Shown here piece after piece: positions 3,001-6,000 of a stretch of DNA of 11,186 nt. The position numbers are program-made. Each line of letters begins with the position of its first letter. Position 1 is the stretch's first letter. Source of the DNA: a virus; UHGV virus genome UHGV-0120180, one strand, 5' to 3'.

Positions 3001-6000
3001 GCGGTCTCTGGTGGAAAAGTTGTTATTCCCAAAGCGATGATTTATGACGCGGTGATTGAAACACTGGTGTCGCGGAAGGTTGTGGCAGATGAAGTAAAAG
3101 CCGGGGTAAGTATCACGTCGCCTGTTATCCGGAGTGCTGTTATTCAGAACGGGAACTTTCAGGTTGATTCTCAGGGTAACCTGAATATTGGTGGCCTTTT
3201 TAGTGTTACGTCGCAGGGGCAACTGACAATTCGTTACTCTAATCAGAATGTTGGGCTGGTGATCCGCAATGATAAAATTGAAGTTTATGACCAGAACGGA
3301 CGCCTGGCTGTTCGCATAGGCAGGTTAAGCTGAGCCGGAGGCTGACATTGGCAGAATATGGTTTTGCAATATACAACAGAAACAATGTTAATGTTACGGG
3401 CGTGCTTACTCCCATATTTTTCCTGGACAGGTTTACGGCGGAGTCGGGATCAAAAACGTATACGAATAAACCAGAAGGGAAAACATTGCAGGCAGTCTGT
3501 TCATTATTTCCGTGGAATAATGTATTTAAGGACCGGAAAGTACCGAAGATAACCATTAATGGCAATACGGTGACGTGGTCGAATCTTGAGCAGGGGATGG
3601 GGTCATATATTTATACATTCTGGGGGTGAGTTGTATGTATGGTTTAAGCATTACGAAACCAGATGGCAGCTTGTGGATAAGCCCGGGGTTTACGCCTCAG
3701 TGTCTGATCAATAAGGGAACTATTCCGGCGACTGAGAAGGCTTTTTTTAAAACATCAATCCCGTCAGGAAAAAGTTGTTTTTTCTTTATCAGAACAGAGA
3801 AAAAGGCCGATGTCATGTACACACATGAACAGATTGATGGATATCATGCCTTAAGGCTTCATCAAATTGTCAGGGGAACGAATCCTGGTGTTACGACTGT
3901 TTATGCTTTTGCGAATATGGTTACTCAACCTTCTGAGTATGGTATTGCCATGTATAACCCGTCGGGTGAGATGATTTACCATGGCGAAATGATGCTGCTT
4001 GACGCGAAGTTAATACCTGTTGATATCAAATTTGAAAAAGACCTCGGATATCCATGTGCAATTATGCCTGCACTGGTTGGGTATTATAACTGGCAGCGTA
4101 CACCTTATGACCGACCGATTTACACCACATCAACGGGGGCTACAGGAAATAAAATATATTCCTGTGAGCATTATTCCGGTCGTGCAACATGGGATATTCG
4201 GAAGCCGTATATAGATAAAGTGCTGGTCATTAATTCATCAATATATGACTGATATGCCTGTCAGTATGAATATTAAGTAATAAAACTAAATTCATCTTAG
4301 ATAATACGGGGTTATTTTATTATAGGAAAAGTCTAAAAATGAAACATGCCAGAATTATTTTTGCGTGCACAACTTTTGTGATGAGTTTTGTAGCAGCCCC
4401 TGCCTGTGCAGCACAAGGTGACAGTACAGTTTCTTTCGGATACGCTCATCTTCAGCTCTCTGGACTGAACAATTTTGTTAAGGATTTAAGTCTTTATAAT
4501 CTTGATACTTTTAACCGTTTTACAAACAGACACTACTTCAATTCAGGCGAATATGCAGATGCTTCTGTCCGGGGGCATGATGGCAAAGGCAAATCTCCTC
4601 AGGGGATGAACATCAGGTATCGTTATGAGATAACGGATGAGATTGGTGTTATAACATCTTTTACATGGGCGCGTTCTATGACTAATGCGCAGGCATTTAT
4701 TGATGTTAACCCAGGAGATGAATCCAGAGAGGTTAAAAATCCGGCAGCTTCAGGAAGAACAGATATCAGAGCGAATTACTGGAGCCTGTTAGCGGGTCCT
4801 TCGTGGCGGTTTAACGAATACCTCAGTGTGTATGCAATGGCTGGTATGGGGGTTGCAAAAGTCACCACTGACTTGAAAATTAACGACAATCTTAATCATG
4901 GTGCCGGTAGTTTTTCTGAAAGCAAGAGTACTAAAAAAACAGCACTTGCATGGGCTGCTGGTGCACAATTTAACCTGAATGAAAGTGTTGCTATGGATGT
5001 CGCGTATGAAAGCTCCGGATCCGGTGACTGGCGCACGAGTGGGGTTATTGTAGGCATTGGCCTGAAATTCTGAGTAATACCCGACAATATGTCATAACCC
5101 GCTGTGATAGCGGGTTTTTTGTTGCCCGTGCAGGGCAAAAATCGTAGATTATGCGCGGGTGCCTTTCGGCTGATGGCTGGAAGGTGAACCTGAAGGCCTG
5201 ATGTGGAAAGGCCCCGAGTCAACTTTAATGTTAACCCGAGGCCCTAACCATCATACCTTAAGCAAGTAGAAGGTTAGCGCCTCTCCACTCAGGAGGCAAG
5301 CGCTATGTCGCAAAAATCGCTCATCACCGTCACAATTTGTATGACGGTAATCTTCACCATCTGGATGTTACACGGCTCGTTGTGTGAGTTCCGGCTGAAT
5401 TTGTGGGGAGCGGAGTTTGCGGCGTTCTTACAGTGTAAGCAGTAGGAAAACCGCGACGGGGACAAAAGTCCCCGTCAACTGGTTGCTGAGGTTCAGCCGA
5501 TATGGCACCCGTTTCAGGTGAGAGAGAGGTGGTTTTAAGTCAGCCAGTGATGCGCGTAAGTACATTGATTCACATCGTGATGAGCTTGTTCGTCATGTGA
5601 AGGAGATGCGGGAGATTTCGCGTGAGGAGCAGCGTAACGCCACTAACCGCGACCGCACCGGACCAGAACGCCGCAAAGGGGATGTTTCGCCGGAGCAGTT
5701 CAGTGATGCGTTTGGTTTCCGTGGTGTGCAGTTTGGTAATTATGTGGAAGGTCCGCGTCGTCAGGCTGATTTGAACCGGGCTTATGACTCGCTGCATGAC
5801 CTGGCTGACGTGCTGAACGTTCCGACAAAAGCGCTTTCCCTGAATGGTCGTCTTGGGCTTGCTTTTGGTGCCCGTGGTAAGGGTAAGGCGGCGGCACACT
5901 ATGAGCCGGGTGAGGTGGCAATCAACCTGACAAAAGGTAACGGACCGGGGGCGCTGGCCCACGAATGGTTCCATTCACTGGATAATTATTTTGGTCGTTA

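Follow-up and report, generated by a model that had tools for sequence, protein, structure and literature searches.

In the plasmid R1 paradigm of the Gerdes laboratory, hok mRNA is controlled by a fold-back of the transcript (tac/fbi). In intact 933W/Sp5-type phages, a hok gene stands in the late region within the order tail genes, lom, hok, an ORF of 133 aa, four further ORFs and a giant gene (2786-2793 aa), i.e., a module of five genes (133, 218, 148, 83 and 421 aa) lies ahead of the giant gene. The product of the latter has the domain order LPD5-LPD1-MuF_C-LPD38 and is a 'polyvalent protein' in the sense in which Iyer et al. reportedly used this term in 2017. In short-tailed Stx phages, this giant protein of the virion makes up phrog_616; its representative in Sp5 is ORF80 (ECs1242). 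Earlier work has shown that ORF79 and ORF80 (2793 aa) of Sp5 are each essential for tail formation (PMC5155283), and gp47 of phi24B (2811 aa, same domains) was found in the virion proteome, with a proposed role in ejection (bioRxiv 10.64898/2026.04.10.717836).

The window, i.e., the whole stretch of 11,186 nt analysed here (UHGV-0120180), represents the late region of a 933W/Sp5-type prophage of E. coli (short-tailed, Stx-phage-like), which adjoins ynfE/ynfF in the chromosome. For its giant gene, an atypical start context had been predicted and attributed either to coupling with a small upstream ORF or to 5' truncation of a once longer gene. The relevant features are:

4339-5073, plus strand: lom, the gene of an Ail/Lom outer-membrane protein, identified as an ORF, by PF06316 (Ail_Lom) on the identical product in L004-L009 and by its annotation as Lom in relatives.

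5157-5510, plus strand: hok/sok type I toxin module, with the hok ORF at 5305-5445 and PF01848 (HOK_GEF) on its 46-aa product.

5502-5525, plus strand: 5' stub of the 133-aa ORF (phrog_610), eight codons (MAPVSGER); when aligned with L001 and L002, the window shows identity up to about 5525 and no relationship beyond.

5502-5600, plus strand: chimeric 32-codon ORF, composed of eight codons of the 133-aa ORF and 24 codons in the +1 frame of the giant gene, up to the first +1 stop (TGA 5598-5600).

5522-10492, plus strand: 3' remnant of the giant virion (polyvalent/ejection) protein gene, from 5525 equivalent to residues 1137-2791 of the full-length protein according to translations, Pfam and phrog_616.

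5524-5525, no strand: deletion junction, located by BLAST breakpoints, base-by-base comparison and a megablast split.

5597-5608, plus strand: GTG-AAG-GAG-ATG, internal Val-Lys-Glu-Met codons of the parent gene; the same bases occur inside the full-length genes of L002 and L003.

The comparison with relatives strongly indicates that a decaying Shiga-toxin-type prophage of E. coli lost about 6.6 kb here, and that the unusual start of the giant gene is the scar which this deletion left. In alignments, the window tracked the sequence downstream of hok up to the junction and the interior of the giant gene past it, and the flanks of 5524/5525 matched two spots 6.6 kb apart in intact relatives. In other E. 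coli, the same site next to ynfEF is occupied by an intact allele, which in L011 comprises all five intervening genes. Past the junction, the intact allele is 99.9% identical to the window. By BLAST, window positions 1-5525 corresponded to 1296-6819 of L011 and positions 5524-11118 to 13399-18993; the deleted length amounts to 6581 bp on the L011 scale (6820-13400) and to 6591 bp on that of L003. Identity to L011 and L012 was 96.9-97.1% over positions 1-5525 and 99.91% (5 mismatches) over 5524-11118, and identity to PhiR5_2 was 97.7% over 1-5525 and 94.6% over 5524-7176. The same two-part split was obtained in BLAST against L001 and at base level against L003, and megablast alignments broke at the identical base in phages, plasmids and E. 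coli genomes. Nothing in the evidence contradicted the deletion itself.

At the join, the first 23-24 nt of the 133-aa ORF run into codon 1137 of the giant gene in a different reading frame, and the left and right parental sequences overlap by 2 nt (GA) within a GGTGAGAG motif found at both breakpoints. The event was most probably one illegitimate-recombination deletion of ~6.6 kb between two copies of this short GGTGAGAG/GA-rich motif. A plain in-register crossover at the 8-nt GGTGAGAG repeat was rejected, as the join is offset by 4 nt, leaves GGTGAGAGAGAGGTGG and has only the 2-nt GA overlap. The giant gene, which is the ORF80 homologue, is truncated by its first 1136 codons (41% of ~2,790 residues); the 133-aa ORF is gone except for its stub, and the four ORFs that follow it are missing. 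The genes removed include the homologue of Sp5 ORF79 as assigned by position and size. Upstream of the deletion, lom is undisrupted at its usual 933W-type position and the hok module is intact, the junction lying 14 nt past its 3' fold-back arm.

Comparison with homologues bore out the idea of a 5'-truncated remnant. Full-length homologues (2786-2793 aa) reach about 1136 residues further upstream, and the best 120 homologues of the remnant have 2482-2793 aa as compared to 1628-1656 aa here; among these 120, 28 are listed as 100% identical over the whole remnant (rounded to whole percent). Full-length members from E. coli prophages share 99-100% identity with the remnant over their last 1628 residues. 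From the first in-frame start, the ORF spans 5597-10492 (1631 codons), and, as had been predicted, the frame upstream of GTG 5597 is open to 5522, following TGA 5519-5521, with 1656 fully open codons overall; it is the position of the junction that makes the frame open exactly there. Where the full-length protein reads ...GKNKMRVRGGFKSASDARKY..., the window frame from 5522 reads ERGGFKSASDARKY.... This upstream stretch had been described as linker-like; instead, it corresponds to part of the LPD5 domain of Pfam (profile positions 85-144 of 144). LPD5 occupies residues 1049-1198 of the full-length protein and is cut mid-domain by the breakpoint, with 84 of the 144 profile positions gone, while LPD1, MuF_C and LPD38 are complete. 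Positions 1166-2793 of the 2793 positions of phrog_616 are kept and the sequence belongs to this family, but the remnant is not an intact member. The remnant shares with Sp5 ORF80 and phi24B gp47 the domains LPD1, MuF_C and LPD38, the downstream neighbour (a Panacea-domain gene common to the remnant and the intact allele) and the chromosomal site of an intact allele, whereas it lacks the first 1136 residues, the native start and the five upstream structural-module genes.

As a consequence of the position of the junction, the remnant has no native ribosome-binding site, and the native translation initiation region is absent at its new 5' end. GTG 5597 is indeed the first in-frame start and lacks a Shine-Dalgarno sequence, the best duplex with the anti-SD having -1.9 kcal/mol. 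For the following ATG, the predicted zero spacer to AAGGAG (5600-5605) was found, however, the codon is located at 5606-5608 and not at 5604; public gene calls start here (1628 aa). The small ORF was present from ATG 5502 to TGA 5598-5600, encoding exactly the peptide originally quoted, and its stop overlaps GTG 5597-5599 in the proposed GTGA arrangement, with the in-frame ATG 5606 5 nt past the stop. All of this follows from a single deletion: the ORF is a chimera because the start of the 133-aa ORF was fused to the giant-gene interior, the stub being read for 24 codons in the wrong frame to the first stop, and both GTGA and AAGGAG-ATG are internal codons. ATG 5502 is preceded by an SD-like GAGGU with an 8-nt spacer (-6.3 kcal/mol), and AGGUGA precedes GTG 5529, which shares the frame of the small ORF. 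The phrog_610 profile (1-124) aligns to residues 9-133 of the 133-aa ORF, residue 9 being a second ATG that is deleted here, and the homologue in an Aeromonas phage starts at about residue 13. Given the start of the profile at residue 9, translation of the 133-aa ORF may not natively begin at ATG 5502.

The annotated ATG of the 133-aa ORF falls within the 3' arm of the predicted hok mRNA fold-back, in agreement with the original prediction. In silico, 5157-5172 pairs with 5495-5510 in both the MFE and the centroid structure (z = -7.0 against shuffles), i.e., 5' GGGUGCC/CGGCUG with CAGCCG/GGCACCC, and ATG 5502 is placed in an internal loop. Similarity to unrelated hok loci stops at 5510, and both fold-back arms are kept in two unrelated hok loci. 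The Rfam sok family (RF01794) matched 5157-5316 with 40.7 bits (E = 1.2e-7), which is below its gathering score of 59. Other Rfam matches (Trp_leader, mir-675, Hrs1, tsr25) were weak and dismissed as chance, two of them sitting on the lom terminator. The module resembles hok/sok of plasmid R1 in its Hok/Gef ORF, its candidate sok-like 5' region and a 5' end that is predicted to pair with a 3' element. It differs in that the gene behind hok has its annotated start within the 3' fold-back arm, which is a trait of all 933W-type phages and not specific to the window.

The deletion allele was found only through an exact-protein look-up, and the exact 1628-aa product was recorded in 82 blocks of the collection. 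The junction is present in six independent assemblies, of which two are genome assemblies at NCBI and at least four were assembled independently from ENA/JGI metagenomes. Over stretches of up to 20 kb, their identity is 99.98% or more, with about 3 substitutions at most. The isolate of GCA_949768945.1 is among the carriers, and the window itself is 100% identical to L005. Megablast against the phage and plasmid collections and against 5426 complete E. coli genomes gave no record that spans the junction, and when the 26-nt junction was used as an exact pattern, scans of IMG/VR, JGI metagenome contigs and GTDB representative genomes yielded no match. The deletion allele is confined to one near-clonal lineage. 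Upstream of the window, the late region of the source genome has two more deletions, one from terminase to capsid and one in the tail fibre, and the genome also carries an IS66 insertion. The prophage pool of O157 Sakai is said to be an example of defective or cryptic E. coli prophages. With its breakpoint microhomology, the loss of essential morphogenesis genes, the extra deletions and the IS insertion, the present locus is a typical case of E. coli prophage decay by internal deletion, from which it does not differ in any notable way.

The remnant appears to be a non-functional pseudogene in a defective prophage. The fully open frame of 1656 codons was considered as a sign of selection and rejected: since the carriers are near-clonal and the remnant is identical to full-length alleles, there was no time for decay, and the open frame is uninformative. 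Some features are nevertheless at odds with a dead pseudogene, namely the open frame, the plausible ribosome-binding site at ATG 5502 and the stop/start overlap.

The alternative that survives best, although it is rather unlikely, is that the remnant, placed behind a captured initiation region, is expressed incidentally, yielding a low level of a truncated LPD1-MuF_C-LPD38 protein with or without benefit to the host. Translation, if any, would start at ATG 5502 or GTG 5529, stop at UGA 5598 and reinitiate at GUG 5597 or AUG 5606. The SD-like sequences before the two upstream starts, the position of UGA 5598-5600 relative to GUG 5597 and AUG 5606, and the intact open frame are all compatible with such a course. 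Bidirectional post-termination scanning with reinitiation at nearby starts in E. coli has reportedly been described by Adhin and van Duin in 1990. However, the predicted 5'-3' fold-back of hok would occlude ATG 5502 and its SD in the folded transcript, neither downstream start has a correctly spaced SD, and the product would begin inside the broken LPD5. In addition, the partners of the protein are deleted (the ORF79 homologue as well as head and tail-fibre genes outside the window), and with clonal carriers the sequences hold no evidence of selection.

A bolder version, in which the deletion by chance built an expression unit, with ribosomes loading at the captured initiation region beside the hok fold-back arm, translating the 32-codon chimera and reinitiating, and the resulting ~180-kDa N-terminally truncated polyvalent protein being perhaps domesticated by the host lineage, e.g., for interference with superinfecting phages, is quite improbable. 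Such a protein would contain a zincin-like HExxH region, LPD1, MuF_C and LPD38 with DarB-like similarity.

Still less probable is the regulatory reading offered originally, by which a leader ORF starting in the hok fold-back arm evolved to couple the giant gene to hok mRNA structure by termination-reinitiation at GTGA. The stop/start overlap and the fold-back geometry are truly present, the SD-like GAGGU lies at a workable distance from ATG 5502, and, as in AUGA/GUGA termination-reinitiation coupling, the UGA of an upstream ORF overlaps the in-frame GUG of a downstream ORF. In contrast to such coupling, however, the arrangement is not conserved: the small ORF arose through the deletion and no intact relative has it, the GTGAAGGAGATG bases with their Val-Lys overlap are internal codons conserved in full-length genes, and the giant gene of intact phages begins 3.4 kb further upstream, behind five other genes (a start given as about 10 kb downstream of hok). 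The restriction to a single near-clonal lineage and the doubtful status of ATG 5502 as a native start also argue against it. Furthermore, the geometry is at chance level. The +1 frame of the remnant contains 76 stops with a mean open run of 20.5 codons, and 29% of the runs reach at least 24 codons; about half of the stops (49%) overlap an in-frame ATG, GTG or TTG. Both the length of the small ORF and the GTGA overlap are therefore within chance expectation. Judged from the sequences, the small ORF and its overlap would be accidental by-products of the deletion rather than a regulatory device.

Insertion of the lom/hok block into a once longer giant gene, as suggested originally, can practically be dismissed: lom and hok do act as a moron, and in a distant Aeromonas phage the homologue of the 133-aa ORF directly follows the tail-tip gene without lom or hok, but intact 933W-type phages have both genes at the same, normal place together with a full-length giant gene, no 5' part of the giant gene is found upstream of lom in the window, and the left flank breaks off only after 23-24 nt of the 133-aa ORF, i.e., nothing was inserted and ~6.6 kb were deleted downstream of hok. 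An assembly artefact, for which the empty pattern scans might speak, is equally negligible in view of the exact junction in independent genome and metagenome assemblies and the repeated record of the exact product; the junction is real.

The deletion opens no long-standing question. It shows neatly that the scar of a deletion can look like a uORF or a translational-coupling signal, and anomalies of start context should be compared with intact homologues before any regulatory reading is considered. For annotation, the 1628-aa 'LPD38 domain-containing protein' called in these genomes is encoded by the 3' 58-59% of the gene of a virion protein in a probably defective prophage, which calls for its annotation as a fragment of a pseudogene and not as a short natural isoform.

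The start region of the giant-gene remnant, the 3' part of a gene for a virion polyvalent/ejection protein, contains the following features:

5502-5600, + strand, 32-codon ORF (uORF; ATG 5502 to TGA 5598-5600) encoding MAPVSGEREVVLSQPVMRVSTLIHIVMSLFVM
5597-10492, + strand, remnant ORF of 1631 codons, first in-frame start GTG 5597-5599
5600-5605, + strand, AAGGAG, directly abutting ATG 5606-5608

The uORF was present as originally predicted, its TGA overlapping the GTG of the remnant in a GTGA. The described lack of a Shine-Dalgarno (SD) sequence at GTG 5597 was borne out by anti-SD duplex scoring, which yielded only -1.9 kcal/mol, compared to -7.6 kcal/mol for ATG 5606 (zero spacer) and -6.3 kcal/mol for ATG 5502 (GAGGU, 8-nt spacer). 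AAGGAG does adjoin an ATG with zero spacer, but this ATG is located at 5606-5608 and not at 5604, from where the reading meets 75 stops. The remnant frame is open back to 5522 and preceded by TGA 5519-5521. Alignments identified GTG-AAG-GAG-ATG as internal Val-Lys-Glu-Met codons that are also carried by full-length genes.

When 4300-6600 was compared with phages and plasmids by megablast, the query split at a single base: the window up to 5525 matched the lom-hok region of 933W/Stx-type phages, while from 5524 it matched the interior of a gene annotated as "LPD38 domain-containing protein". In the alignments, the window tracks hok-downstream sequence through ...ATGGCACCCGTTTCAGGTGAGAGA and then switches to the giant-gene interior ...GAGGTGGTTTTAAGTCAGCC. 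The left match (through 5525) and the right match (from 5524) overlap by 2 nt (GA) within a GGTGAGAG motif found at both breakpoints. Four intact relatives, Escherichia phage PhiR5_2 (L001), an O157:H7 phage-like replicon (L002), the E. coli DETEC-S792 chromosome (L003) and E. coli CP065619.1 (L011), share the gene order lom, hok, a 133-aa ORF, ORFs of 218, 148, 83 and 421 aa, and a giant gene of 2788-2793 codons. The segment absent from the window comprises 6581 bp on L011 (6820-13400) and 6591 bp on L003. A deletion of about 6.6 kb very probably left the atypical start context as its scar; illegitimate recombination at a short GA-rich repeat would have produced an out-of-frame fusion. Differences between the window and its closest intact relatives cluster at 750-1750, 2750-3250 and 4750-5500 (10-27 per 250 nt, with identical stretches between); beyond the junction, the window shares 99.9% identity with L011. 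Such a mosaic points to earlier recombination between related prophages across the region of the tail genes, lom and hok.

The sequence of the intact product runs ...GKNKMRVRGGFKSASDARKYIDSHRDELVRHVKEMREIS..., and the window frame from 5522 reads ERGGFKSASDARKYIDSHRDELVRHVKEMREIS..., which places the first retained codon at residue 1137 of 2791. Pfam assigned four domains to the intact protein:

residues 1049-1198, LPD5
residues 1359-1438, LPD1
residues 1748-1839, MuF_C
residues 2474-2679, LPD38

The frame from 5522 covers only LPD5 profile positions 85-144 of 144, indicating that the breakpoint falls in the middle of this domain and that the upstream open frame, previously considered linker-like, is not a linker. 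The remnant spans positions 1166-2793 of phrog_616 (2793 positions). Its best 120 homologues extend further at the N-terminus, being full-length or nearly so (2482-2793 aa), and among these listed matches 28 are given as 100% identical (rounded) over the remnant. The proposed 5' truncation of a longer gene is therefore correct.

The first eight uORF codons (MAPVSGER) come from the 133-aa ORF (phrog_610), whose annotated N-terminus they encode, and the remaining 24 are the giant gene in the +1 frame up to the first stop. The remnant contains 76 stops in its +1 frame, where open runs average 20.5 codons and 29% of them are 24 codons or longer; in 49% of cases the stop shares bases with an in-frame ATG, GTG or TTG, so that chance accounts for a 24-codon read ending in GTGA. 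Folding of 5157-5525 (MFE -157.3 kcal/mol, z = -7.0) paired the 5'-end GGGUGCC/CGGCUG with CAGCCG/GGCACCC at 5495-5510, leaving ATG 5502 in an internal loop; its predicted position inside the hok 3' fold-back arm hence holds in silico. An Rfam sok match at 5157-5316 remained below the gathering score. All 933W-type relatives examined, and not just the window, have this arm overlapping the start annotated for the next gene; the deletion begins 14 nt past the arm. In the window (5495-5510) and its equivalents in L001-L003 and L011, the arm holds the SD and annotated start (ATG and two codons) of the 133-aa ORF.

Incidental expression, with translation starting at ATG 5502 or GTG 5529, terminating at UGA 5598 and possibly reinitiating at GUG 5597 or AUG 5606, appears unlikely, as the upstream site would be occluded by the fold-back, both downstream starts lack an SD at the proper spacing, and translation would yield a product beginning inside a broken domain. 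Coupling as an evolved device is excluded by the comparative data, the GTGA falling on internal codons of full-length genes. Disruption by insertion of lom/hok, the other cause originally suggested, is excluded by collinearity with the intact relatives, in which lom-hok is followed by the giant gene. Misassembly is excluded by independent assemblies.

The 133-aa ORF may natively start at a codon other than ATG 5502. In this ORF, residues 9-133 match the phrog_610 profile (124 positions), and the single distant homologue found, in Aeromonas phage phiARM81mr, which lacks lom and hok upstream, begins at about residue 13. Unrelated hok loci remain homologous through GGCACCC (5504-5510), placing ATG 5502 within the hok module. 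The PHROG profile and the Aeromonas homologue point to a second ATG, 24 nt downstream, as candidate real start; it has a well-placed AGGTGA, and the bases lost in the deletion start with this ATG. The N-terminus annotated in Stx phages may accordingly be 8 residues too long. In phiARM81mr (2989-6047), homologues of the 133, 218, 148, 83 and 421-aa products, three with a virion structural protein annotation, directly follow the tail-tip fibre gene without lom or hok, indicating that in E. coli phages these two genes entered a conserved structural module as a moron. Just after lom, a strong intrinsic-terminator-like hairpin at 5097-5123 (ACCCGCTGTGATAGCGGGT, then TTTTTT) explains weak spurious Rfam matches (Trp_leader, Hrs1, tsr25).

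The public collection has the exact 1628-aa product starting at ATG 5606 in 82 blocks. The junction 26-mer occurred in all six fetched contigs (two NCBI E. coli assemblies, four ENA/JGI metagenome contigs), all at the same ynfE/ynfF-adjacent site, with identities of at least 99.98% to the window and one another over up to 20 kb; the window is 100% identical to L005 (GCA_949768945.1), the source genome. None of 5426 complete E. coli genomes spanned the junction, and downstream of it the window shares 99.91% identity with an intact allele at the ynfE/ynfF-adjacent site. By this distribution and identity, the deletion is real, recent and limited to one near-clonal lineage; the still-open remnant frame is uninformative on selection.

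In Sp5, ORF80 (ECs1242, 2793 aa) and ORF79 (ECs1241) are each essential, and the mutants package DNA but lack tails (PMC5155283). The phi24B virion proteome contains abundant gp47, the homologue of 2811 aa (LPD5, LPD1, LPD38, MuF-C), which is not visible in the cryo-EM map; a role as encapsidated ejection protein has been proposed for it (bioRxiv 10.64898/2026.04.10.717836). By position and size, ORF79 probably corresponds to the 421-aa gene that immediately precedes the giant gene. The deletion removed the whole ORF79 homologue and 41% of the ORF80 homologue. In L005 1-4395, just before the window, there are two more late-region deletions relative to the intact phage PhiR5_2 (14000-40500, L014):

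L014 ~11403-19386, about 8 kb, Rz to beyond the capsid genes (Rz, terminase, portal, capsid), 17-nt overlap at the join
L014 ~20767-22950, about 2.2 kb, tail-fibre gene

Downstream, an IS66 breaks the SocA/Panacea-domain gene (starting at 10643) at 11118/11119. The element (L005 15514-18129; TnpA/TnpB/DDE genes) makes the last 68 bases of the window (11119-11186) differ from all other carriers, and the product has 147-159 aa after insertion vs 174 aa in uninterrupted carriers. Given these losses, the prophage is predicted to be defective and the remnant a pseudogene fragment. In carrier L004, a rve-family transposase (16312-18781) splits a PAPS-reductase/DUF3440 gene, and in L009 IS21-like and IS3-like elements (1-3256) replace the tail genes upstream of 3381; such independent insertions show ongoing prophage decay in the lineage. 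The finding is ordinary prophage decay, and the gene family involved has been described before. Annotation should treat the 1628-aa gene call as a fragment, and anomalies of start context should first be checked against intact homologues.
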